DNA of 19,963 nt. It comes from a virus. Lineage: Duplodnaviria; Heunggongvirae; Uroviricota; Caudoviricetes. The translations under genes and the position numbers were made by a program. The notes beneath the pieces were generated by a model. It made no database searches and was not told where the DNA came from. It saw only the letters and a list, made by a program, of their open reading frames with translations. The stretch is taken from IMG/VR virus record IMGVR_UViG_3300025162_000035; one strand, 5' to 3'. This document shows, in pieces, positions 1,109-14,666 of the stretch; positions within the stretch are counted from its first letter, which is position 1; each line of letters begins with the position of its first letter.

Positions 1109-1191
1109 GCTGTGTTACGCAAGCGGTCAAAGCAGTATCTCTTTCAAGGATATCCTTAATTGGTTCAGGGGTTCAAATCCCCTACACAGTA
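1109..1191 (+). tRNA. tRNA with Glu(UUC) anticodon and long variable region
   Basis: Acceptor GCTGTGT/ACACAGT, TATCT-CTTTCAA-GGATA, 14-nt variable region, T arm AGGGG-TTCAAAT-CCCCT. Confidence 0.85.
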
Positions 1192-1196
1192 CAATG

Positions 1197-1404
1197 CCCC
1201 TCTTAGCTCAGTCGGTTCAGAGCGTCTGGTTTAGACCCAGAACTTAACATTTTTAGTGAAGGTACCAATAAATCTTGTACAGGGTTTATTGGAAGAATAG
1301 TTAAATCTGCAAGGTAGATGACCCTGAATGTCTTACTAATAGTACTTAATGTAAGAAGATATGGTGTAGTCGAGGAGTCCAAGGTTCGAATCCTTGAGGG
1401 GGGA
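1197..1404 (+). tRNA. tRNA-Leu(UAG)-anticodon RNA with 138-nt insert in variable region
   Basis: Acceptor CCCCTCT/AGGGGGG, D stem GCTC/GAGC, TCTGG-TTTAGAC-CCAGA, T arm CAAGG-TTCGAAT-CCTTG at 1380-1396. Confidence 0.75.
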
Positions 1405-1410
1405 CAAAAT

Positions 1411-1482
1411 GGTGCGTTAGCTTAGTGGTTAGAGTAGCCCCACGTTCAGGGGTTGGCGGGAGTTCGAATCTTTCACGCACCG
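1411..1482 (+). tRNA. Atypical tRNA, GUU (Asn) anticodon, aberrant loop
   Basis: Acceptor GGTGCGT/ACGCACC, G73, GCCCC-ACGTTCA-GGGGT (C33 and C37 instead of U33/purine 37). Confidence 0.7.
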
Positions 1483-1574
1483 CTGTTTGATTTTAATAAG
1501 AAGAATGCTTTCTTAATGGATACAACATGTGAAGGAACCGACCGTTGGTCGAAAGATTAAAATCAAACGATTTT

Positions 1575-1584
1575 TTAATATATA
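1575..1584 (+). promoter_or_regulatory. TTAATATATA motif (putative phage promoter)
   Basis: Same motif recurs just upstream of many start codons on both strands. Confidence 0.5.
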
Positions 1585-1588
1585 TTGT

Positions 1589-1900
1589 ATGAAAATTAAA
1601 CGGTTTAACGAAATATCAGTTGGGCAGCCATGGGATAGTCAAGCGCACAGAGAATTTTCAATTGATATGAGTGTTGTAAAGGCTCACGATAGCACACCAA
1701 ATTATTTATCAATTATTAGAAGTATGATTAGAAAGGGTGAAGGTAAAGTTTGGGTGAATAATATTGAAGGTAATACAGCACACATTAGATCGTGGCAGTT
1801 TGATATTCTTGGTGATGCAACGGTTCCAGTTGAAGCATTAAAAGGTTTTAGTATGAAATCATGGACTACTAATAACGTAGCAAAAAAATTTGATATGTAA
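1589..1900 (+). CDS. Hypothetical protein, MKIKRFNE.../...KKFDM tagged family
   Basis: Start moved to ATG 1589 after the TTAATATATA motif; family N- and C-terminal motifs. Confidence 0.75.
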   Translation: MKIKRFNEISVGQPWDSQAHREFSIDMSVVKAHDSTPNYLSIIRSMIRKGEGKVWVNNIEGNTAHIRSWQFDILGDATVPVEALKGFSMKSWTTNNVAKKFDM

Positions 1901-2449
1901 CTATCCTTTATAAATTTTTATCATGTATGGTGGTATGTTACCTTTAATTCTAAACCCATGACCATATAAAGCACTATCCCCAAGAGAATTACCACAATCA
2001 ATATTACTGTGCAATCTTTTGTTTCTTAGTTGATCAGCATCTGGTTTTAAATGGTATATTGGTGCATCGATTTCATACACTGTAATTTTGTTGTATGGAT
2101 ATGACATTTCGCCAAATGTTTTAGCCATTGATGGAAAGAGTGACAAATATGTAAATCCTGGTTGGCTTTGCAAACTTTTTTTGGTTGATTCTTTGGTTTT
2201 CATCAACCCCTGATTCATTATATCATGTTCATCAGATGTTCCATGGTAAAGTTTAAGGCAAGCAAATTTGTTAGCTCTAAGGAATTTATTCACAGCTTCA
2301 ATATCTTTAGGTGTTGGGTCTTTGTAGAGCAAAGTTTTAAATGGCTCAGTTGTCATTGGATCAATAACCTTTGGGGTAAATGAAGTGGCAACTGGTGATA
2401 TTTTGTGCCCGATGTAGGAATTTTCGAATAGCTCAAATTTTGTGATCAT
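1901..2449 (-). CDS. Putative ADP-ribosyltransferase-fold protein
   Basis: LYHGTS...I...GL, then FTYLS...AKTFG and VYEID, matching the ART/Tpt1-like strand order; MITKFELFEN start. Confidence 0.55.
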   Translation of the reverse strand: MITKFELFENSYIGHKISPVATSFTPKVIDPMTTEPFKTLLYKDPTPKDIEAVNKFLRANKFACLKLYHGTSDEHDIMNQGLMKTKESTKKSLQSQPGFTYLSLFPSMAKTFGEMSYPYNKITVYEIDAPIYHLKPDADQLRNKRLHSNIDCGNSLGDSALYGHGFRIKGNIPPYMIKIYKG

Positions 2450-2486
2450 AAGCTATATATAATTTTTTATTTTTTATATATAGGCT

Positions 2487-3353
2487 ATGAAGTATTTGAA
2501 AACTTTTTTAGAATCAGCCGATAGTCCAGACCTTGTTGGAAGATTTTCACCAGCGGAAATGCGGACCGCAGCCACAAATGATGACCAATTTGCTGAAAAG
2601 TCAATGAGACCATTTGTTAAAGGCTGGTATGCTGGTAAAGCTGGTAAAGCATCCTCAGATTTGGAAGATATGATGAATGATAATCGATGGGGTACTATGG
2701 GAAGCAAATACGGAATATCTGATTATTTTTACAAAAATCTTTTATCTAAAGTCCCAGAATTTGAAGGATGTAAATTAAGAGTCGATGATAATAAAGAAGA
2801 TGGCAAAATTGGTTTTTATGTTGGTAAAAAACACCGAATTATAGGGACAAAATATGAAGCAGCATTAGAAATTTGGGTTCATTTTCATACAAAATATATT
2901 AAAGTATTCAACTATGAAAAAGGAAAAATAAAACTTCTTTTTTCTTGTGGAACAAACGATGCTATTGAAGGCTCAATTAATAGGGCTGATACACAAGATG
3001 AAGATAAATTATTCGATAAGATTTTGACTGATATTTTAAAAGATCATCCTGACAAAAAATACTCAACATCATTACAGGTCTATGGTAAAAATTTAAATAA
3101 GGATTCATTCTTAAAAAAATTGCCACAAGTCAGAAAGGACTTCAAATATTTTGAAAATTACGTTATTCCTCAGGCAATATTTGAATTTCAGGAACATCTT
3201 TATTTGAATAATTTTCCAAGGTTTTTTGAATTAATAATGCATAGTGATGATAAATCGTATGATGATATATCACCAAGAATTCTTGCAAAATATAAAAATC
3301 AAATACCACAAAAAATTAAGGTTGGAGTAAGTTCCGCCAGATTCGATTTATGA
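2487..3353 (+). CDS. Hypothetical protein, MKYLKTF.../...RFDL family
   Basis: 288 aa ORF with family termini. Confidence 0.85.
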   Translation: MKYLKTFLESADSPDLVGRFSPAEMRTAATNDDQFAEKSMRPFVKGWYAGKAGKASSDLEDMMNDNRWGTMGSKYGISDYFYKNLLSKVPEFEGCKLRVDDNKEDGKIGFYVGKKHRIIGTKYEAALEIWVHFHTKYIKVFNYEKGKIKLLFSCGTNDAIEGSINRADTQDEDKLFDKILTDILKDHPDKKYSTSLQVYGKNLNKDSFLKKLPQVRKDFKYFENYVIPQAIFEFQEHLYLNNFPRFFELIMHSDDKSYDDISPRILAKYKNQIPQKIKVGVSSARFDL

Positions 3354-3733
3354 GAATAGTAAAATTTAATGAGAAATTGTCAACTGCTGAAGTTGAGTTT
3401 GCGGAAAGTTTCAAAGGTTCTTTGAGCGGTGATATTACTGATTATATTTTAACAGTGTATAAAGAAACCAAATTACCGAAAGAAGAAATAAATGACATTT
3501 TTAATTCAAAATATATTGAAAAATATTTAAGTGTTGATCAGGATATTCAAAAACTCGAAAAACAAATAGAAAATCTTACTAAGAATAAAGATTACTATGA
3601 ACTTGATGCCACCTCTGAAGCAGTTTATTTATTACAGGAAAAATTAATCTTCAAAGATTTCGCAAGTTTATATCGTTTGTATATGGATCGTAGAGGTAGT
3701 GGTGGGTTTGATCCTGATAATGATGAAGAATAG
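3350..3733 (+). CDS. Hypothetical protein (MRIVKFNE start)
   Basis: 127 aa, ATGA overlap with upstream gene. Confidence 0.8.
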   Translation: MRIVKFNEKLSTAEVEFAESFKGSLSGDITDYILTVYKETKLPKEEINDIFNSKYIEKYLSVDQDIQKLEKQIENLTKNKDYYELDATSEAVYLLQEKLIFKDFASLYRLYMDRRGSGGFDPDNDEE

Positions 3734-3828
3734 GTCGAATCTGCGTGAAGAAAGATAAGTTTTTAAACGTTTATCAATTTCTTCACGATATTTTTCTAAT
3801 ATTCTTGGGTGAAGGTCATAAAGTGAAT

Positions 3829-4273
3829 ATGATAAAGAAATTCAAAATATTTGAAAATCGTGATCGGTCTGAAGAAGTCCTATTAGGTCAAATTGTATTT
3901 AAATTTGATGAATTGAGAACTACTGGATTTTTTAATTGATCATATTATTCGCAAGTTTGATTTGAATTGGTACAATTGCTTAAAAACAAAGGATTCCCCA
4001 AAAATAGAATATGGTGATTATATATATTATGATGGGTTTGTTAATCCTAAAGTAATCAAAAATGTTGAAGCAACCTTTCAGGGTGTTAAGTTCAAAAGAT
4101 TGAACGTTAATCTTAAGAGTAGCTTTAATTATACATTTCAAGATGATGAAGGATATTACATAAGCAAGGACGTAAATATTCCAATATCAATGTTAAAAAG
4201 TTATTGGGATTCATTTCAAATGTATAAGATCGATGTCACCAATTATTTTAATTATCAAAAGTTCGATCTTTAA
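3829..4273 (+). pseudogene. MIKKFKIFE.../...KFDL family gene split by a +1 frameshift near 3916-3934
   Basis: Frame 1 MIKKFKIFEN...KFDEL stops at 3937; frame 2 is open from 3917 (ELLDFLIDHIIRKFDLNWY...QKFDL). Confidence 0.6.
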
Positions 4274-4285
4274 TCAGTTACTTAT

Positions 4286-4357
4286 GGCGAGGTAGTTCAG
4301 AGGCAGAACAGTTGAATCATAATCAACAAGTCGGGATTTCGAAATTCCCTCTCGCTA
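4286..4357 (+). tRNA. tRNA with CAU anticodon (elongator Met or Ile2)
   Basis: Acceptor GGCGAGG/TCTCGCT, GTTGA-ATCATAA-TCAAC; lacks initiator GGG/CCC stem. Confidence 0.88.
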
Positions 4358-4521
4358 CAAATTAGAAAGTTCATATCAAATATAATAAAAAAATTAAAAT
4401 TGAATAAATGCAGAACGGCAGTATGCGGTTGTGTGCAGCGGGGATCGTGACCCTAACCGTCAACAGTTCGACTCTGAACGGGCATGGTTAGCAATATCAC
4501 AACTTTACTCAGTTTTTTCAT

Positions 4522-4594
4522 GGGCTCTTAGTATAATTGGTTAGTATAGGTCCCTGATAAGGATCAGACCTTGGATCATTCCCAAGAGAGCCTA
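4522..4594 (+). tRNA. trnI: tRNA-Ile(GAU)
   Basis: Acceptor GGGCTCT/AGAGCCT, GGTCC-CTGATAA-GGATC, T-loop ATCATTC. Confidence 0.85.
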
Positions 4595-4604
4595 CTTCCC
4601 AAAT

Positions 4605-4681
4605 CCAGATGTATCCGCTCACTCTTATAAGGTGTAGAAACGGTAATTGGTCACATGAAGGTTCGATGCCTTCCATCTGGA
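4605..4681 (+). tRNA. Rearranged tRNA, Ile(UAU) anticodon, no conventional D arm
   Basis: Acceptor CCAGATG/CATCTGG, CACT-CTTATAA-GGTG, T arm GAAGG-TTCGATG-CCTTC; AATTGG D-loop motif lies 3' of the anticodon arm. Confidence 0.72.
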
Positions 4682-4686
4682 CAAAT

Positions 4687-4759
4687 GGTCGGTTAGGATA
4701 ATAGGTGAGTCTGCATGCCTTATAAGCAAGCGATGGGGGTTCAAAGCCCTCACCGACTA
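4687..4759 (+). tRNA. trnI: tRNA-Ile(UAU)
   Basis: Acceptor GGTCGGT/ACCGACT, loop CTTATAA, T arm GGGGG-TTCAAAG-CCCTC. Confidence 0.85.
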
Positions 4760-5788
4760 CAAAGAAACACAGGTTGTTGGTTTACAATTATTATAAAATT
4801 TTTCATTCATACTTTTATTATATTGAAAAGAAATATAATCATTTTCTTCACAGTATTTTTCTAATGATTCTTTTTTGGGTATAATTGTTTTATAATAATA
4901 ATCCCATTTCCTTTGTAAATCTTTATTAGATATTATTGTCTTACATTCAACAATATAAATTCCTTGTGTTGTTGTTATTTTGAAATCTGGGTTATATTTT
5001 TTGGTTATACCATCAATTACAAAATTTATTAAAAAATTACATCTTTCTATATTTAAAACTACAAAATTTTTCTCAAAGTAATTCAAACAACTATATTCAA
5101 CTTTAGAATCACATCTTATTAATTTATCCTTGTATTTATAGCGGCATTTTATACTTTTTAATTTTGGTTTAAATATGCCATCTTTTATTTTATTGCTCAC
5201 AAGTTTAGATAAATTTTCTTTTATTTCTTTTGTCATTGAACCTTTTGATGCACAACTAACACTACAATATTTTTGTTTATTTCTTCTTACCCATTTAGAT
5301 TTGTATTCTTTATGACAGTATTCACAATTTTTTTCAACATATTTTGGATTTGTGTTTTTTATAGTCTTTATTTTAATTTTTTTATTTTCAAATCTTTTTT
5401 TAGATGCACAACTAACACTACAAAATTTCCTATGCCTGACACTCCATTTTAATTCAAATTCTGAATTACAATATAGACACACTTTTTTAATTGTATCTGG
5501 TAAGCCTTTTTTTAAAGTGATTCTAATTTTATTTTTTGTTTTTTCTGGCATTTTTTTATTTTTATTAGTTTTTGATGCAGAACAAGACATCGAACAAAAA
5601 GTATTCCTTCTTTTATCATATTCAATTATATTTGAACAATTTAAACATAATTTTGGTTTTTTATTATAAATATCTATTCTATTTTTTTTAAGAACTTTTA
5701 TTTTCTCTAAAGATTTTTGGTTAGCCTTTTTATTATTTTCGAAAATTTTACCAGATTTATAATAATCCGAATTTTTAATACTTGCCAT
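4757..5788 (-). CDS. Putative free-standing endonuclease: three Cys4 Zn-binding repeats plus C-terminal TnsA-like PD-(D/E)XK domain
   Basis: Three CxxC...F/YCSxSC repeats; C-terminal RCDSKVE...YNPDFKI...YIVECK. Confidence 0.7.
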   Translation of the reverse strand: MASIKNSDYYKSGKIFENNKKANQKSLEKIKVLKKNRIDIYNKKPKLCLNCSNIIEYDKRRNTFCSMSCSASKTNKNKKMPEKTKNKIRITLKKGLPDTIKKVCLYCNSEFELKWSVRHRKFCSVSCASKKRFENKKIKIKTIKNTNPKYVEKNCEYCHKEYKSKWVRRNKQKYCSVSCASKGSMTKEIKENLSKLVSNKIKDGIFKPKLKSIKCRYKYKDKLIRCDSKVEYSCLNYFEKNFVVLNIERCNFLINFVIDGITKKYNPDFKITTTQGIYIVECKTIISNKDLQRKWDYYYKTIIPKKESLEKYCEENDYISFQYNKSMNEKFYNNCKPTTCVSL

Positions 5789-5869
5789 CGTTTTTTAGTT
5801 TATATATAAAATAAAAAAAGTCGTATTTATTCAACTCGAACTCAAATTTTCAATTTATAGGCACAAAAA

Positions 5870-5944
5870 GGATATATAGCTCAGTTGCGTTAGAGCGCAT
5901 CGCTGATACCGATGAGGTCGTAGGTTCAAGTCCTACTATATCCA
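5870..5944 (+). tRNA. trnI: tRNA-Ile(GAU)
   Basis: Acceptor GGATATA/TATATCC, CATCG-CTGATAC-CGATG, T arm GTAGG-TTCAAGT-CCTAC. Confidence 0.93.
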
Positions 5945-5949
5945 CATAT

Positions 5950-6022
5950 TCCTCCTTAGCTCAGTTGGTAGAGCAGCAGTCTGTTAAACTGCGGGCCGCT
6001 GGATCGTGACCAGCAGGGGGAG
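5950..6022 (+). tRNA. trnN: tRNA-Asn(GUU)
   Basis: Acceptor TCCTCCT/AGGGGGA, G73, GCAGT-CTGTTAA-ACTGC, T-loop ATCGTGA. Confidence 0.92.
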
Positions 6023-6025
6023 CAA

Positions 6026-6409
6026 TTAAAGATCAAATTTTTTACCAGTGGTTTGGCTTTTAATATCTTTAAGTAATTGGATGATTTCAGGTGTAGGATC
6101 GTGGATTACAATTTTTCGGAAGTCTGGAATTTTGGCACCCATCGGTGCGCCATTATAATCGAAGTTCACCCAGACCCCGTCTCTATCATCACTTTGAATT
6201 TTTGTGATCACTTTTTTTATATTTGGAGTTTTGGTTGAATCATAGAACGAGATCGTTCTACCTACAATTAGTTTATTCAGATATTCCATAAAACGTTTGA
6301 AGTCGTAGGTATCTTCTTTGGAATGCCCGAATAATTTTCTTAGATCGGATATATGGAAGTAGGTTCCAGTGTCTGATGGTCGTTTAAAGTCTTCGAATAT
6401 TGTGATCAT
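6026..6409 (-). CDS. Hypothetical protein, paralog of the 9986-12834 array family
   Basis: Start reassigned to MITIFEDF at 6409; F.I.D...F, L..L.VG.TI and I.IHD.P...KKFDL motifs shared with array members. Confidence 0.8.
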   Translation of the reverse strand: MITIFEDFKRPSDTGTYFHISDLRKLFGHSKEDTYDFKRFMEYLNKLIVGRTISFYDSTKTPNIKKVITKIQSDDRDGVWVNFDYNGAPMGAKIPDFRKIVIHDPTPEIIQLLKDIKSQTTGKKFDL

Positions 6410-6506
6410 ACAGTATATATTATTTTTAAATTCAGAATGTTTGTCTGTGATTGGGTGCACCACGCAGATAATAAATGGAAAAATGTGGTTAGAGCCCACC
6501 GTTCTG

Positions 6507-6583
6507 AGCGTGGCGTAGCTGAAGTCCAAGAAAGAGTGTAGGTGATAGTGACAAATGTGGGTTAGACTCCCACCGCATACGCT
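6507..6583 (+). ncRNA. Degenerate tRNA-like element
   Basis: T arm GTGGG-TTAGACT-CCCAC, bulged acceptor AGCGTGGCG/CGCATACGCT, TAGCT start; no clear anticodon arm. Confidence 0.35.
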
Positions 6584-6585
6584 AT

Positions 6586-6930
6586 TTAAAGATCAAATCT
6601 TTTAGTTATCAAATTTCGATTATAATTTTCAATTGCTTTTTTTGCTGCACGAATATCGGGCCCACGATAAAGGACTTTAAGTGGATTATCAGTGACTTCG
6701 GTATAAACTCCTGTTGGGAGTCGATACATTTTCCATTTTCTTTTTGTAGCTTTTGTATTTAGATCAAAAACATCAGCAGAAGTTATTATCCCGTAACCAT
6801 TATCATAGGTTTTTGTTATTTTTACAATTAGTAGATCACCATCATCACAAAGTAAAGAGAAATAATCGCCTTCAGCAAAAGATGCTATTTTGGATATATC
6901 TGACATATAATTTTCAAACTTTTTGATCAT
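6586..6930 (-). CDS. Hypothetical protein, MIKKFE.../...KRFDL family
   Basis: 114 aa, family termini. Confidence 0.8.
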   Translation of the reverse strand: MIKKFENYMSDISKIASFAEGDYFSLLCDDGDLLIVKITKTYDNGYGIITSADVFDLNTKATKRKWKMYRLPTGVYTEVTDNPLKVLYRGPDIRAAKKAIENYNRNLITKRFDL

Positions 6931-6952
6931 ATTCTATATATAAAAAAGAAAT

Positions 6953-7022
6953 TGAGAAAATGCCAACAGGAACGTAACCAACAACGGGCTTGAACCGTGA
7001 AACATCAACTGGCATTTTCTCA
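6953..7022 (+). ncRNA. Divergent member of the ACAGCAA anticodon-stem-loop ncRNA family
   Basis: 13-bp outer stem TGAGAAAATGCCA/TGGCATTTTCTCA, ACAGGAA motif, inner hairpin ACGG-GCTTGAA-CCGT. Confidence 0.5.
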
Positions 7023-7029
7023 CCTATAA

Positions 7030-7141
7030 GGGATTATAGTTTAATGCACCTATAACGGGATTCCAAAAAAGATGAAAGGGGTGTAGGTAGAATTCTGGGG
7101 CGCATAACCCAGCGATATGGGTTCGAGTCCCATTGCTCCCG
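7030..7141 (+). tRNA. Atypical CAU-containing (initiator-like) tRNA with enlarged D loop
   Basis: Acceptor GGGATTA/TGCTCCC (6/7), CTGGG-GCGCATAA-CCCAG, T arm ATGGG-TTCGAGT-CCCAT, ~47-nt D-loop region. Confidence 0.55.
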
Positions 7142-7147
7142 CAAATG

Positions 7148-7175
7148 AAAAAGCCAATCTTTCGATTGGCTTTTT
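7148..7175. terminator. Bidirectional intrinsic terminator
   Basis: AAAAAGCCAATC-TTTC-GATTGGCTTTTT between convergent units. Confidence 0.85.
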
Positions 7176-7186
7176 CTAAAATTTAG

Positions 7187-7933
7187 TTAGTTTTGTAATA
7201 CCCAGAAGTCATAAGCAAGACCTTTGGTGAAGTAAGTGTATGGTAAATAAAAATATCCATGATCACCCCAGCTTGCGCCCCAAGAATTTCGGCACACAAA
7301 CCATTTCTTATCATCATTATAACCGATTATAAGGACAGCATGACCACCTAAAAGTTGTTCACTTTTTTTTGGTAGTGGAACTTTGCCAGTTTTTGCTACT
7401 GCGGCTGATTCAAATGATTCATAAACATCCATCCCAGTTAAAACTGGTTTTTGTTGAAGAACCAAAACTTGTTTAATTTGATCCTGAGTTGCTACTGAAA
7501 TATATGATTTTATTTTATATTTCAAAGCATTTGTAACGGCAGCGTTTGTTGGGGTAACAGCAAATTTTGTGATATCATATGGGAAATAAGACTCTTCACA
7601 GATACCATAAGTTTGCATTGCTTTACCAATGTCCCTCATTTGTGCTCCACCGTCTTGAGAAATGTCACCTTCAATCTTTCTTTCTTCGAAATATTGAAAA
7701 AGACGAGAAAGATTAACTGTTAATTTATTTAGCATCACTCGTGCAGCAACACCAGCGTTAGCAGTGCAGCTACCCAATTGTCCTTGGTCATATACAAGTG
7801 GGCATTGTGCAATTAGAGTGAATATTTTGGGTATTGTAATTTTAACTGAAGGGTGTATATCTAACACGGATTTTAATTGAAGGTCCCTTTCATCTGGGGT
7901 TTGCTTCTTTAAATTATATATGTGGTTTGCCAT
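7187..7933 (-). CDS. Papain-like cysteine peptidase (C1 family)
   Basis: DQGQLGSCTANA (Gln, Cys), GGHAVLIIGY (His), RNSWG (Asn); start reassigned to MANH at 7933. Confidence 0.92.
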   Translation of the reverse strand: MANHIYNLKKQTPDERDLQLKSVLDIHPSVKITIPKIFTLIAQCPLVYDQGQLGSCTANAGVAARVMLNKLTVNLSRLFQYFEERKIEGDISQDGGAQMRDIGKAMQTYGICEESYFPYDITKFAVTPTNAAVTNALKYKIKSYISVATQDQIKQVLVLQQKPVLTGMDVYESFESAAVAKTGKVPLPKKSEQLLGGHAVLIIGYNDDKKWFVCRNSWGASWGDHGYFYLPYTYFTKGLAYDFWVLQN

Positions 7934-7962
7934 AGTTTTTTTTTTTATTGTATATATTAATT

Positions 7963-7970
7963 TACCTTTG
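7963..7970 (+). promoter_or_regulatory. Bacteroidota-type -7 promoter element TAnnTTTG
   Basis: TACCTTTG ending 17 nt upstream of ATG 7987. Confidence 0.45.
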
Positions 7971-7986
7971 TACAAAATGTGAATTT

Positions 7987-8373
7987 ATGAGCCCAGATGC
8001 ATATATGAAATATCAAATTGAACAGCTTCATAAGCTGTTTCGTGAGATTGGTATTGATCAGTATACTCACGGTATGCCACCAATGGGGGAAGAGGATATG
8101 GGTCCTCACTACAATTCATATGTATTTAAGGCACCTCTTGCTGAAAATAGAAAAGTAAATGGTAAAATGTGCTATCTTCGAGGAGATTTTAGAATTCATC
8201 TTAACAGTGATACAAATTATATCACTGGTGTATATTTCTGTCATGTTTGGTTTCCTAATGGTCGAACCGATGAAATTAGGTCTAAAGATATTATGGGTGT
8301 AAAAAAGTTCATTGAAAAATATGAGCACGTATTCAATCCAAAGATTAAAATTCAAAAACGTTTTGATTTATAA
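7987..8373 (+). CDS. Hypothetical protein ending KRFDL
   Basis: Start reassigned to ATG 7987; family C-terminus. Confidence 0.75.
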   Translation: MSPDAYMKYQIEQLHKLFREIGIDQYTHGMPPMGEEDMGPHYNSYVFKAPLAENRKVNGKMCYLRGDFRIHLNSDTNYITGVYFCHVWFPNGRTDEIRSKDIMGVKKFIEKYEHVFNPKIKIQKRFDL

Positions 8374-8375
8374 CG

Positions 8376-8618
8376 TTATTTTTTCTTTAGAAGTTCAATC
8401 TCTTCTTTTAAAAGATTCATAATAATAGTATCATTTTTTAATTGTAAATGATTTAGGCTATCATTGATTTTAATAGCTTTGTTGTTTTCATCTGCCATCT
8501 TATTTGTTGCTTGCATTATATTCCTATTTTCTCCAAAGTAATCAACAGCAAATAACCCACCAATAATAAGCACAACAAATAGAATAAATAATAATATATT
8601 ATCTTGAATATTTTTCAT
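8376..8618 (-). CDS. Small membrane-anchored hypothetical protein
   Basis: N-terminal hydrophobic helix ILLFILFVVLIIGGLFAV followed by coiled-coil-like region. Confidence 0.7.
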   Translation of the reverse strand: MKNIQDNILLFILFVVLIIGGLFAVDYFGENRNIMQATNKMADENNKAIKINDSLNHLQLKNDTIIMNLLKEEIELLKKK

Positions 8619-8660
8619 TCGAGGTTTTATTTGTATATAGTAATTTTTGAAAGTTCAAAT

Positions 8661-8750
8661 GTACAGTTAGTCAAGAGGTCGAAGACATCAGACTGTTAAT
8701 CTGACGCAGCGAAAGCTCCACCATAGGTTCAAATCCTATACTGTACGCCA
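8661..8750 (+). tRNA. tRNA with Asn(GUU) anticodon and long variable arm
   Basis: Acceptor GTACAGT/ACTGTAC, G73-CCA, TCAGA-CTGTTAA-TCTGA, variable hairpin AGC-GAAA-GCT. Confidence 0.88.
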
Positions 8751-8756
8751 TTAAAT

Positions 8757-8841
8757 GCACCGTTATCCGAGTGGTCGAAGGAATCAGGTTGTTACCCTGC
8801 CGAGCTACGGCTCCACGTGAGTTCGAATCTTACACGGTGCG
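8757..8841 (+). tRNA. tRNA with Asn(GUU) anticodon and long variable arm
   Basis: Acceptor GCACCGT/ACGGTGC, CAGG-TTGTTAC-CCTG, variable hairpin GAGC-TACG-GCTC. Confidence 0.85.
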
Positions 8842-8842
8842 C

Positions 8843-8911
8843 ATAAGTGTTTTTCACGAAAAGTGGTTAATTTTAACCACTTTTCACGAGAAATAAGCAT
8901 TTTTCACAAAA
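8843..8911. repeat. 13-bp perfect hairpin with three TTTTCAC direct repeats
   Basis: GAAAAGTGGTTAA-TT-TTAACCACTTTTC (8858-8885); TTTTCAC at 8851, 8881, 8901. Confidence 0.6.
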
Positions 8912-8913
8912 TT

Positions 8914-8981
8914 AGGATTGAAGGATACACACAGCAACTAAAAAAACTTGACTGTCAATCAAACAACACGTATCCTGTTCT
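8914..8981 (+). ncRNA. ACAGCAA-family ncRNA copy 1, Asp(GUC) anticodon loop
   Basis: AGGATAC/GTATCCT stem, ACAGCAA, TTGA-CTGTCAA-TCAA. Confidence 0.75.
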
Positions 8982-8990
8982 TAAAAAATT

Positions 8991-9060
8991 GAGGATAAAG
9001 AATACCTACAGCAATTAAAAAACTTGTCTGCAAAACAAACCAATGCGTATTCTGTTTCTC
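8991..9060 (+). ncRNA. ACAGCAA-family ncRNA copy 2, Cys(GCA) anticodon loop
   Basis: AGAATAC/GTATTCT stem, ACAGCAA, TTGT-CTGCAAA-ACAA. Confidence 0.75.
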
Positions 9061-9085
9061 TTTTTTTATTTTAATATATATGTTC

Positions 9086-9649
9086 ATGAAGTATATTAAA
9101 ATGTTTGAAGAAATGAAATCGTGGGATATTGCTAAGTATTTCGAAGAGTTGAGAGATGCGATGACTGCTGGCAAATTGGATAAAGTAAATAGTATTATTT
9201 TTGAAGCCCCTGACGTTGTTTTTTGGCAAGATAATGATAATAGTGCTGGATGGACAGCTCTTATGTGGGGGGTGGCTGACCACACTGACACAAAAGTTGA
9301 CATAATCAAAGTCTTAATTAATGCTGGGTCTAATGTTAATGCTACTGATAATTTTGGATGCACTGCTTTAATTCATGCCGCAACTATTGATTTAGATAGA
9401 TCAACTGATAAACATCAAGCCTTAGGACAAACTAAAGAAATTCTTAAATTGTTATTAGATTCTGGTGCTAATCCATATATTAAAGATTTTGAACCAGATG
9501 AGGATGAAAAATATTATGTAAATTATACAGGCGGAGAGGATTGGTATGATCATGCGACTCCAGATATTAAACAATGGATTGAAGAAAATTGCCCAGAGTT
9601 TTGGGCAAAGAAGAGACGTGAATTGGCTCAGAAAAGGTTTGATTTATAA
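9086..9649 (+). CDS. Ankyrin-repeat protein with MKYIKMFEE/KRFDL termini
   Basis: GWTALMWG...IIKVLINAGSNVNATDNFGCTALIHAA...ILKLLLDSGANPYIKD. Confidence 0.9.
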   Translation: MKYIKMFEEMKSWDIAKYFEELRDAMTAGKLDKVNSIIFEAPDVVFWQDNDNSAGWTALMWGVADHTDTKVDIIKVLINAGSNVNATDNFGCTALIHAATIDLDRSTDKHQALGQTKEILKLLLDSGANPYIKDFEPDEDEKYYVNYTGGEDWYDHATPDIKQWIEENCPEFWAKKRRELAQKRFDL

Positions 9650-9668
9650 TCGTAAAAATTATTTATAT

Positions 9669-9753
9669 GTTGCATTATGCAAGCGGTTAAAGCAGTAAGG
9701 CTCTCAACCTTACCCCTTTACAGGGTTCGTGGGTTCAAATCCCACATGCAATA
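9669..9753 (+). tRNA. tRNA with Glu(CUC) anticodon and long variable arm
   Basis: Acceptor GTTGCAT/ATGCAAT, TAAGG-CTCTCAA-CCTTA, variable hairpin CCCT-TTAC-AGGG. Confidence 0.87.
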
Positions 9754-9754
9754 C

Positions 9755-9830: not shown

Positions 9831-9904
9831 GCTCCCATCGTCTAATGGTTAGGACATCAGGTTTTCATCCTGAAGATTTGCGGGTTCGAGCCCCGCTGGG
9901 AGTA
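9831..9904 (+). tRNA. trnE: tRNA-Glu(UUC)
   Basis: Acceptor GCTCCCA/TGGGAGT, TCAGG-TTTTCAT-CCTGA, T arm GCGGG-TTCGAGC-CCCGC. Confidence 0.93.
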
Positions 9905-9985
9905 CTTAGATAAAAACCATTATTGAACTTTTATTCTGATAAATGGAAAAAAGGAAGAAATATGAAATTCAGAACATATTTATAA

Positions 9986-12866: not shown

Positions 12867-12943
12867 GCCTCACTATTGGCCCAGTTTTCGAAACTGGAGA
12901 CGCATAACGGATGAAAATGTGGGTTCGAATCCCTCGTGAGGTA
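12867..12943 (+). ncRNA. tRNA-like element with replaced D/anticodon region
   Basis: Acceptor GCCTCAC/GTGAGGT, T-loop TTCGAAT; centre is hairpin CCAGTTT-TCG-AAACTGG plus a poorly paired CGCATAAC. Confidence 0.55.
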
Positions 12944-13115: not shown

Positions 13116-14666
13116 ATGAAAACTATCAAAACCTCTAATAAAATATATTGGGCTCCATCTGATTTTTTGGAAGTGCTAAATAAGTTGAATTCGTCTCCAA
13201 CATCCTCATTAACTGCCAACAATAAATCAACCGATGGATTAAATATTGATGAAATTACAGGTAAGAAAATCATGATTCTTCATCGTTGTGTTAAAGAGGG
13301 GTCTAATACAACATTGAGATTAAAAGAAATAGCAGACAATATATTATCAGGAAAATGGGATCGTCACCCATTTCGTCAACGACCATTCACTTGGAAAGAT
13401 TCGAGGCAAATTCCATTTATTACAACTCTTTTAAAAAATTGCATTAAAAGTAGTACTAATGGATCAATGGCTATTGCTCCTATCTTTATCACCAAAAACA
13501 TTGAAGATAAAACTTACGTGGATGACGGATGGCAAAGGAGTAGTACTATACATCGGTTTGTGTATGGAAATCTTGAAATAAAGGGATATGATGCAGCATG
13601 GATTATTGGATTTTTCATTTTTCAGTTTATTGAATGTGCCAATAATGAATATCACCCAAACAGAAAATATTTTGTTGATACTCTGAAAAACCTTCATGCT
13701 GGGAATTTCAAAAAATTGGTCATTACGTATAAAAATCTTCCAGAATCGGTAAAAAATGAGTTTGATGATTTAGTAATGTCTGTACGTCATTTAATCATTG
13801 AGACAAGTACTTATGATTTTGAAACTGGTAAGATAACAATACGTCAGCAAGATTTAACAACAGAAAGCCCATTATGGGAGTGGTTTGTGAATGTTCAATT
13901 AGGTCAGGAAGCTATGACTAAGAAAGATGTTATCATGGCAATTCAAAATGATATCAATTATAAAACAATTGATATCAGTTATGATTTATCTACATTCTTT
14001 TTCAAAGATTCATATCAAGGACGAATGATAAATCAATCATTAATAGAAGCCTTATTATGTGTAACTGGAAAGGCTGCTATGAATAACACAAAGCAATCAA
14101 TCGATTATTTGAATAAGAACAGATTTCATGACTCCAAAAGTCCTGAGATGTTATTACTTCAAAAATTAGATTGGAATGTAAGATTGTTTTATAAAAACCA
14201 TTCAAATAGATTCAACGATTGCAAATTTAAAATGTCGCTAACTGATCTTAAATTTTATTGGTATTTATTATTATCTAATTGGGATAAATTATATTCAACT
14301 AACGGTGATGTTAGATTCCCTTTTACTTATAGTAATGAAATAAATAAAAATTATTTCAAATTTTTAGAAGTTTTAAGAGATATATCAGGTATTATCAGTA
14401 AAATAAGAAATGTTTATGATTCTAAATTGGGAAAGAAACCGTCCCAAAAAGAAATTAATGAAGTTTATGAATATGCTCTAACAATTGGTGACGATAAATT
14501 AAAGATGTTTACTATTACATATTTGACATCCTTGGTTGATTTTGCATCATTAACAAGAAATACTAAAAAGTTTTCAGCTTTTTTAAAAAATGAGGATGTG
14601 AAATTAAAAATCGATAAGATTATAGATTGTATTATTGAGCACTATAAATTTAAAAGAATAAATTAA
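13116..14666 (+). CDS. DUF262-like (ParB/sulfiredoxin fold) domain protein
   Basis: HPFRQRPFTW...FITTLLK...APIFI...YVDDGWQRSSTIHRF resembles the DUF262 QRxYxW...DGQQRxTT signature. Confidence 0.65.
   Translation: MKTIKTSNKIYWAPSDFLEVLNKLNSSPTSSLTANNKSTDGLNIDEITGKKIMILHRCVKEGSNTTLRLKEIADNILSGKWDRHPFRQRPFTWKDSRQIPFITTLLKNCIKSSTNGSMAIAPIFITKNIEDKTYVDDGWQRSSTIHRFVYGNLEIKGYDAAWIIGFFIFQFIECANNEYHPNRKYFVDTLKNLHAGNFKKLVITYKNLPESVKNEFDDLVMSVRHLIIETSTYDFETGKITIRQQDLTTESPLWEWFVNVQLGQEAMTKKDVIMAIQNDINYKTIDISYDLSTFFFKDSYQGRMINQSLIEALLCVTGKAAMNNTKQSIDYLNKNRFHDSKSPEMLLLQKLDWNVRLFYKNHSNRFNDCKFKMSLTDLKFYWYLLLSNWDKLYSTNGDVRFPFTYSNEINKNYFKFLEVLRDISGIISKIRNVYDSKLGKKPSQKEINEVYEYALTIGDDKLKMFTITYLTSLVDFASLTRNTKKFSAFLKNEDVKLKIDKIIDCIIEHYKFKRIN

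Follow-up and report, generated by a model that had tools for sequence, protein, structure and literature searches.

Four long-armed tRNAs with asparagine and glutamate anticodons in an uncultured phage, probable isoacceptors of a widespread phage-borne design

Four tRNA genes with long variable arms, two bearing the asparagine (Asn) anticodon GUU and two bearing glutamate (Glu) anticodons, lie in a 19,963-nucleotide (nt) stretch of Caudoviricetes DNA (IMG/VR record IMGVR_UViG_3300025162_000035; hereinafter the window, meaning the whole stretch analyzed). Judged from their sequence and from comparison with other phage tRNAs, they are probably working isoacceptors that would be charged with their cognate amino acids and would decode AAY and GAR codons correctly. 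They are further members of a widespread, mainly phage-borne design that spans many isotypes. In bacteria, long arms are by textbook account limited to the tRNAs for leucine (Leu), serine (Ser), tyrosine (Tyr) and selenocysteine (Sec), and both annotation and identity rules rely on that limit. A sequence-only reading of this DNA had taken a long arm to denote a Leu, Ser or Tyr body; this premise fails in phages, where at least 16 isotypes besides Leu, Ser and Tyr (amino acids hereinafter in three-letter code) occur in long-armed form. Such tRNAs sit unremarked, labeled as plain tRNA-Asn, in hundreds of GenBank phage records. The window itself is a piece of a large uncultured phage: protein-coding stretches identical to its own are seen in several environmental metagenome assemblies, and BLAST searches, near and distant, of its tRNA region against cultured phages recovered no close relative.

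Calls and structure of the four tRNAs

ARAGORN called 14 tRNAs on the plus strand of the window, and the Rfam tRNA model agrees. The four long-armed genes, all on that strand, are a tRNA-Glu(UUC) of 83 nt with no encoded CCA at 1109-1191 (ARAGORN span 1109-1192; Rfam RF00005, 43.2 bits), a tRNA-Asn(GUU) at 8661-8747 followed by an encoded CCA at 8748-8750 (ARAGORN 8661-8750; 61.3 bits), a second tRNA-Asn(GUU) 6 nt past it at 8757-8841 (ARAGORN 8757-8842; 48.5 bits), and a tRNA-Glu(CUC) at 9669-9753 (ARAGORN 9669-9754; 52.1 bits). We refer to them below by their first positions. The gathering score of the Rfam model is 29 bits, and all four matches span the full model with an insertion of 14-18 nt at the variable region. 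Together with a position-by-position parse, these results uphold what had been noticed from the letters alone, namely four long-variable-arm tRNAs with Glu and Asn anticodons, G73 on both Asn and A73 on both Glu copies, and conventional Asn (5950) and Glu (9831) tRNAs alongside them.

In the parse, all four have an acceptor stem of 7 base pairs (bp), all of them formed, a T stem of 5 bp and a 7-nt anticodon loop with U33 and A37 (CUUUCAA in 1109, CUGUUAA in 8661, UUGUUAC in 8757 and CUCUCAA in 9669). The D arm, 17 nt in each, forms only the pairs 10-25, 11-24 and 12-23 (10-25 being C.A in 1109), and positions 13 and 22 are unpaired (A13.A22 or G13.A22). The features of an elongator tRNA in RF00005, that is 7/5 stems, a 7-nt anticodon loop, U33, a purine at 37, G18G19 and the T loop UUCRAAU, are present in all of them. 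At the acceptor end, both Glu copies have G1.U72 with A73 (1109 additionally showing U8-A9), and both Asn copies have G1-C72 with G73, followed by U2-A71 and A3-U70 in 8661 and by C2-G71 in 8757, which also has a U27.C43 mismatch in the anticodon stem.

The variable regions occupy 1153-1166 (14 nt), 8705-8722 (18 nt), 8801-8816 (16 nt) and 9713-9728 (16 nt), and energy-only folding predicts a hairpin in each. That of 8757 consists of 1 nt, a GAGC/GCUC stem, a UACG loop and 3 unpaired nt, and that of 9669 of 1 nt, a CCCU/AGGG stem, a UUAC loop and then UUC. The arm of 8661 has a 3-bp AGC/GCU stem with a GAAA loop and gave no clean parse in the arm-layout analysis; the stem of 1109 is of 2 bp only (CC/GG). 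Between the two Glu copies we counted eight two-sided compensatory pair changes and no one-sided change, and between the two Asn copies seven two-sided changes and one one-sided change, from which it follows that all four are maintained as folded RNAs. Each long-armed pair is a duplication inside this lineage, and Glu(CUC) probably derives from the UUC copy by a change of U34 to C34.

Spread of the design and identity marks across phage tRNAs

We searched for long-armed Asn tRNAs with the pattern CTGTTAA-N21-30-GGTTCRAATCC, which places a CUGUUAA anticodon loop 21-30 nt ahead of the T loop. It matched at least 120 viral contigs; about 110 of the 120 viral matches listed are tRNAs, and among these matches there are at least 100 unique well-formed long-armed Asn(GUU) tRNAs, of which two are the window's own. 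The matching Glu pattern yielded 46 distinct long-armed Glu(UUC) tRNAs, one of them from the window. By comparison, in bacterial and archaeal genomes (596 Gb) only about 11 of the 120 Asn-pattern matches listed are bacterial long-armed Asn tRNAs, most of them in dense tRNA arrays, and the archaeal matches are intron-bearing genes. Phage loci with a long-armed Asn tRNA also encode long-armed Cys, Met, Thr, Ile, Lys, Asp, Pro, Trp, His, Gln and Val tRNAs. As for Glu(CUC), none of 117 pattern matches elsewhere is a long-armed tRNA with this anticodon, and the window copy is the only one found. Patterns specific to the window, combining D arm and anticodon, recovered zero (Glu) and one (Asn) viral contigs, and four metagenome contigs, three with Glu tRNAs that belong to the same subfamily.

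Cultured phages share the design. In INPHARED, 693 records match the T5-like long-armed tRNA-Asn, which about 290 T5-like phages have nearly unchanged; the T4-like Citrobacter phage Merlin has an 85-nt tRNA-Asn and the jumbo Pseudomonas phage Psa21 a 90-nt one. Like those of the window, the T5-like, Merlin and Psa21 genes belong to tRNA islands and encode 7/5 cloverleafs with GUU, G73 and a variable region of 13-18 nt in which a short stem closed by a tetraloop is followed by about 3 unpaired nt on the 3′ side; however, the sequences are only about 65-75% alike over the fixed positions. Unlike the T5-like phages, the window phage has two long-armed Asn tRNAs together with two other GUU tRNAs, and the tRNA-Glu in the T5-like records parsed is short-armed, unlike the window's long-armed pair. 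Our literature search found no description of long-armed Asn or Glu tRNAs in phages; older T5 tRNA papers and subscription journals lay outside it, and an earlier description is possible.

We set the marks of amino acid identity at the acceptor end side by side for long- and short-armed phage tRNAs that share an anticodon. G73 is present in 90/100 long-armed phage tRNA-Asn (pair 1-72 being U-A in 57 and G-C in 41) and in 51/56 short-armed ones (U-A in 30, G-C in 23). Likewise, A73 is found in 42/46 long-armed tRNA-Glu (pair 1-72 being G.U in 33) and in 84/99 short-armed ones (G.U in 69). The discriminator base (N73) of other long-armed phage tRNAs is U73 in Cys, G73 in Trp, C73 in His, G73 in Asp and U73 or A73 in Thr, and the long-armed Pro tRNAs combine C1-G72 with A73. 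Defining a match as the majority N73 of short-armed tRNAs with the same anticodon isotype, we found that the discriminator matches the anticodon isotype in 211/234 long-armed phage tRNAs outside Leu, Ser and Tyr, as against 92 on average and 116 at most in 10,000 shuffles of the labels. With Asn and Glu left aside, the match is still 79/88 (shuffle mean 36).

As a stand-in for the isotype models of tRNAscan-SE, we trained a naive-Bayes classifier on short-armed phage tRNAs together with long-armed Leu, Ser and Tyr tRNAs, using a structural alignment in which the entire anticodon arm was masked (leave-one-out accuracy 0.74 over 20 classes). Long-armed Glu tRNAs were assigned to Glu in 41/44 cases and long-armed Asn tRNAs to Asn in 53/98, with Cys next (22) from a shared D-arm type, and the cognate model scored above Ser, Leu and Tyr alike in 192/230 long-armed tRNAs. 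For the window Glu tRNAs the scores are Glu –40.2, Ser –56.6, Leu –58.2 and Tyr –60.4 (1109), and Glu –42.6, Leu –52.3, Tyr –54.6 and Ser –55.9 (9669), which puts the Glu model ahead of the other three by more than 9 nats in both, with Tyr 12-20 nats below it. For the Asn tRNAs they are Cys –38.5, Asn –44.6 and Ser –49.0 (8661, Asn over Ser by 4.4 nats), and Cys –38.9, Asn –45.7 and Ser –46.9 (8757). The outcome is clear for Glu; Asn is favored over Ser, narrowly for 8757.

Among T5-like phages, long- and short-armed alleles occupy the same slots. Salmonella phage 5 (AJ604531) and T5_ev212 have a long-armed tRNA-Asn of 80 nt (plus CCA) between tRNA-Cys and RNA3/tRNA-Asp and a long-armed tRNA-Thr(UGU) of 84 nt (plus CCA) between tRNA-Gly and tRNA-Ile, a pair also present in about 290 records, whereas reference T5 (NC_005859) has short-armed Asn and Thr tRNAs in those slots. 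The reverse holds for Leu(UAG), long-armed in reference T5 and short-armed in phage 5, whose Leu(UAA) and Leu(UAG) are of 74 nt plus CCA (4849-4925 and 9835-9911 of the stretch examined). More generally, 54/142 distinct phage tRNA-Leu have a short variable loop (≤6 nt), and the presence of the arm in phage tRNAs seems freely switchable. The long-armed tRNA-Asn is the only Asn tRNA of the phage 5 tRNA region, and a phage is hardly to be expected to give up its sole Asn tRNA for one that inserts serine. According to the annotation by the depositors of AJ604531, quoted here unchecked, a CUA anticodon turns this tRNA into an amber suppressor; on that remark it would be processed, charged and used by the ribosome. 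We also considered the possibility that the T5 Asn and Thr tRNAs that neutralize the PARIS defense system are themselves long-armed and rejected it: the reference T5 alleles are short-armed, and the long-armed ones are confined to other T5-like phages.

Cognate charging and its alternatives

In bacteria, Asn identity consists of the anticodon and G73 and is transplantable (PMC9976931), and by sequence 8661 and 8757 carry exactly this set, GUU with G73. The window Glu tRNAs have the Glu anticodon-loop elements (U34 U35 C36 A37, save for C34 in 9669), and they agree with phage tRNA-Glu both at the acceptor end (G1.U72, A73) and across the body as a whole. We propose that the four have added a variable-arm hairpin while retaining, at the acceptor end and in the anticodon, the marks proper to their amino acids, and that the asparaginyl- and glutamyl-tRNA synthetases of the host (AsnRS and GluRS) would charge them. 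Several points weigh against this reading. The long arm and G73 form the core serine set in several systems, where they are the main determinant (PMC9976931, PMC7609411), and seryl-tRNA synthetase (SerRS) is blind to the anticodon. The margin of Asn over Ser in the classifier is only 1.2 nats for 8757, and Cys, driven by the D arm, is the top class for both window Asn tRNAs. The commonest acceptor end of phage tRNA-Leu is likewise A73 with G1.U72. The major determinants of E. coli GluRS are U11-A24, U13-G22..A46 and the absence of nucleotide 47 (PMC9976931); the window long-armed Glu tRNAs have neither U11-A24 nor U13-G22..A46, and nucleotide 47 is not absent from them, although T5-type short-armed tRNA-Glu also lack the first two. 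Furthermore, GAG is rare in the open reading frames (ORFs) of the window (per 1000 codons: GAG 6.9, GAA 48.6, AAU 57.9, AAC 11.0), which leaves the CUC copy unexplained by codon supply. Class II synthetases, for example AsnRS, approach the tRNA from the side of the variable loop, and a long arm could obstruct them.

The serine-like features, along with the U35 and A73 that the Glu tRNAs retain as two of the tyrosine determinants, could speak for programmed mistranslation, in which SerRS would place Ser at AAY codons through the G73 GUU pair and the leucyl- or tyrosyl-tRNA synthetases (LeuRS, TyrRS) would place Leu or Tyr at GAR codons through the A73 Glu pair. Parallels would be the bacterial allo-tRNAs and the nematode nev-tRNAs (Hamashima et al., 2012; PMC3333845); the latter resemble the window tRNAs in having a long arm on anticodons other than those of Leu, Ser and Tyr, and they show that such tRNAs can be leucylated. 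However, all 115 nev-tRNAs keep A73 and the Leu determinants (PMC3333845), whereas among the long-armed phage tRNAs both N73 and pair 1-72 go with the isotype of the anticodon. E. coli leucylation requires A73 and the tertiary pair A15-U48, the Leu set also including G18G19 and A20a (PMC9976931); phage tRNA-Leu have A15-U48 in 85/88 and U8-G9 in 84/88, but the window Glu tRNAs, with their A73, have G15-C48 and U8-A9. In most bacterial tRNA-Ser, G1-C72 and G2-C71 are absolutely conserved (PMC9976931); G73 and a long arm in the Ser-type orientation complete the Ser set. Phage tRNA-Ser show G2-C71 in 57/58 and 0-2 unpaired nt on the 3′ side of the arm in 71/71. The window Asn tRNAs have G73 and G1-C72, but their pair 2-71 is U-A (8661) or C-G (8757), and the arms of 8757 and 9669 leave 3 unpaired 3′ nt, unlike phage tRNA-Ser. 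As for tyrosine, whose identity rests on A73, U35 and G1-C72 (PMC9976931), along with G34 beside U35 and a long arm, the window Glu tRNAs combine A73, U35 and a Tyr-like arm with G1.U72, U34 or C34, and C36, and G.U is not among the three types of pair 1-72 seen in 53 phage tRNA-Tyr. The bacterial allo-tRNAs (Mukai et al., 2017; PMC5389517), some of them in phages, are alike in their long arm, frequent G73 or U73 and diverse non-Ser anticodons; they differ in their 8/4 or 9/3 helices and in a long D stem that ends in a tetraloop, as against the 7/5 helices, 3-bp D stem and 9-nt D loop of the window tRNAs. Adding that the only Asn tRNA of the phage 5 tRNA region is long-armed in a slot that is short-armed elsewhere, and that just 34/107 viral stretches fetched around long-armed Asn loci show a short-armed Asn tRNA beside it, we regard mistranslation as improbable. 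The earlier suggestion of deliberate insertion of Ser at Asn codons and of Leu at Glu codons thus goes unsupported by the discriminators, by the missing Ser and Leu marks and by the Glu classifier scores, and we caution against reading long-armed phage tRNAs as recoding or mistranslation devices.

Two further alternatives appear less probable still. The four could be decoys or sponges that do not decode and that engage host tRNA nucleases or tRNA-binding factors, or could have some other role outside translation: by-eye reading finds several tRNA-like RNAs unable to decode in the same tRNA row, and the PARIS study suggests that some viral tRNAs may act beyond the rescue of translation (PMC12409363). 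Yet every decoding feature is intact in the four, which retain U33 and A37, G18G19, the T loop and 7/5 helices and whose N73 matches the isotype; one of them has an encoded CCA, and, by its depositors' account, giving the phage 5 tRNA-Asn another anticodon yields a working suppressor. We hold such a role to be quite unlikely. Least credible of all, in our estimate, is the placing of Asp at AAY codons in a host that makes Asn-tRNA by the indirect route, where GUU tRNAs with G1-C72 would be aspartylated by a non-discriminating AspRS and left unamidated by GatCAB. In its favor, U1-A72 is a determinant and G1-C72 an antideterminant of the amidotransferase (PMC9976931), the short-armed Asn tRNA of the window has U1-A72 and both long-armed ones have G1-C72. 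If the host were without AsnRS, the G1-C72 Asn tRNAs might therefore escape amidation, a further point against cognate charging. Nevertheless, G1-C72 is equally common in short-armed (23/56) and long-armed (41/100) phage tRNA-Asn, at 41% of both. The T5-like long-armed Asn tRNAs also have G1-C72, and their phage infects E. coli, which makes Asn-tRNA directly with AsnRS.

We accordingly prefer to see in the four tRNAs cognate-charged Asn and Glu isoacceptors. If so, they and their relatives are natural test cases for how AsnRS, GluRS and other synthetases tolerate an extra arm, and they are of possible interest for the engineering of orthogonal or tagged tRNAs.

Possible roles of the arm and neighboring features

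Four GUU tRNAs, each of a different build, and three tRNAs for Glu lie on the plus strand of the window. Besides the long-armed ones, these comprise an ordinary tRNA-Asn(GUU) with a short, 5-nt variable loop at 5950-6022 (U1-A72, G73), a fourth GUU tRNA with a short variable loop called by ARAGORN at 1411-1482 (G73; its anticodon loop ACGUUCA departs from the usual U33 and purine 37 in having C33 and C37), and an ordinary tRNA-Glu(UUC) at 9831-9904, 77 nt downstream of Glu(CUC), with a Glu-type D arm and G1.U72 and A73, an acceptor end that it has in common with both long-armed Glu tRNAs.

This diversity of builds looks like diversification under nuclease pressure. On the leading idea of why the arm is kept, its projection beside the 3′ strand of the anticodon stem would make the tRNAs poor substrates for the tRNA-cutting defense nucleases of the host, and several differently built isodecoders would serve as insurance; such a shield role is speculative. 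Its background is that phage tRNAs evade tRNA-cutting defenses, by means that include the variable loop (PMC13096335, PMC12409363). The PARIS nuclease AriB cleaves tRNA-Lys, -Thr and -Asn at 40/41 and needs contacts beyond the anticodon loop (PMC12409363), and T5 tRNA-Tyr escapes cleavage through its distinctive variable loop (PMC13096335). The T5 tRNA-Lys, -Thr and -Asn that face AriB and the T5 tRNA-Tyr that faces retron-Eco7 or Septu PtuAB are, like the window tRNAs, phage isoacceptors with non-host bodies; they restore translation, Asn(GUU) being an AriB target and the variable loop the PtuAB site (PMC12409363, PMC13096335). However, these documented escapes come from point substitutions within the stem or loop of the anticodon arm, or from a distinct variable loop on a tRNA that is already long-armed. 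Extending the idea, we tentatively consider, as a possibility short of even odds, that an arm on normally short-armed tRNAs is a general phage counter-defense against AriB-type Toprim nucleases (cutting at 40/41) and other nucleases of the anticodon arm. It would cover Asn, Glu, Thr, Lys, Cys, Met, Ile, Trp, Asp, His, Pro and other isotypes; the armed tRNA would remain acceptable to its cognate synthetase, to EF-Tu and to the ribosome, and differently built isodecoders would insure against different nucleases. Whether the arm blocks defense nucleases is a testable hypothesis of phage-host conflict.

Set against this, the four could be true Asn and Glu isoacceptors whose arm has no role of its own. 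It would be either an insertion that the tRNA tolerates or a legacy of some long-armed ancestor, for instance tRNA-Tyr, and would spread since phage tRNA genes duplicate and swap freely. Bacterial class II tRNA-Tyr share with 8757 and 9669 the arm layout of 1 nt on the 5′ side, a stem of 3-4 bp and about 3 unpaired nt on the 3′ side, and they share the D arm with pairs 10-25, 11-24 and 12-23 and an AG.GG..AA loop; they differ in having A73, G1-C72 and GUA, as against G73 in the window Asn tRNAs and G1.U72 without G34 and A36 in the Glu tRNAs. The arms are highly variable in length and sequence, down to the 2-bp stem of 1109, the arm is missing from many phage tRNA-Leu, and alleles with and without it interchange in T5-like phages. 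At the AriB site (positions 39-40) we found no difference in composition between long- and short-armed forms of phage Asn, Thr and Lys tRNAs, and the T5 of the PARIS work carries short-armed Asn and Thr tRNAs, both of which tell against a shield. On the other side, 96-99% of the stem cells are paired across the long-armed families, and 87% of Asn arms and 96% of Glu arms have stems of at least 3 bp, far above the 40% and 57% of shuffled sequences; GNRA loops are common among the arms, which are often capped by GNRA or UNCG. The design is also far commoner among the viral than among the cellular matches listed and persists in unrelated phage families. We consider an arm without a role rather unlikely overall; a neutral tolerated insertion nevertheless stays a real alternative to the shield. 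Of the earlier suggestion that these are nuclease-resistant isoacceptors, the isoacceptor part is borne out by the isotype-matched marks and the classifier and fits better than mistranslation, and resistance to nucleases is the speculative part.

A separate row of such genes occurs on the IMG/VR contig 3300014204_000341, where 5631-6181 holds long-armed Lys(UUU), Asn(GUU), His(GUG) and Pro(UGG) tRNAs among six adjacent tRNA genes, with another Pro(UGG) of 83 nt at 6381-6463. The Lys, Asn, His and Pro anticodons of this row are among the major or minor targets of AriB (PMC12409363), possibly by coincidence.

Several other tRNA-like units lie on the plus strand of the window, whose G+C content is 31%. 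A tRNA-Leu(UAG)-like gene at 1197-1404, missed by both ARAGORN and Rfam, has a 138-nt insert (1242-1379) precisely at the position of the variable arm. Its parts are the acceptor strands at 1197-1203 and 1397-1403, the D arm at 1206-1223, the anticodon arm at 1225-1241, the T arm at 1380-1396 and A73 at 1404; all four arms are retained in the lowest-energy fold, and the insert could be an extreme variable arm or an intron. By eye, 707-830 and 1018-1108 read as two tRNA-like units in which the T arm and 3′ acceptor half lie upstream of the matching 5′ acceptor and D-arm half, with a linker of the UCCAAAAAAGA type between them; the second unit stops exactly at the start of the tRNA-Glu at 1109. 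Weak Rfam tRNA matches at 7030-7141 (32.1 bits) and 12867-12943 (30.5 bits), both above the gathering score, were left uncalled by ARAGORN, and the former, at 112 nt, must contain a large insertion.

Pfam searches with ten neighboring ORFs recovered no synthetase or tRNA enzyme adjoining the four tRNA genes; the matches were to a papain-type protease, an ankyrin protein and, weakly, GmrSD_N. Downstream of the tRNA row there are Cas6- and Cas3-like genes. The ORF at 13116-14666 on the plus strand, which sits between the tRNA row and the Cas6/Cas3 genes, encodes a 516-amino-acid protein with a match below the cutoff to the N-terminal domain of the GmrSD restriction endonuclease (E = 2.6e-5; 24.8 versus 33.2 bits).

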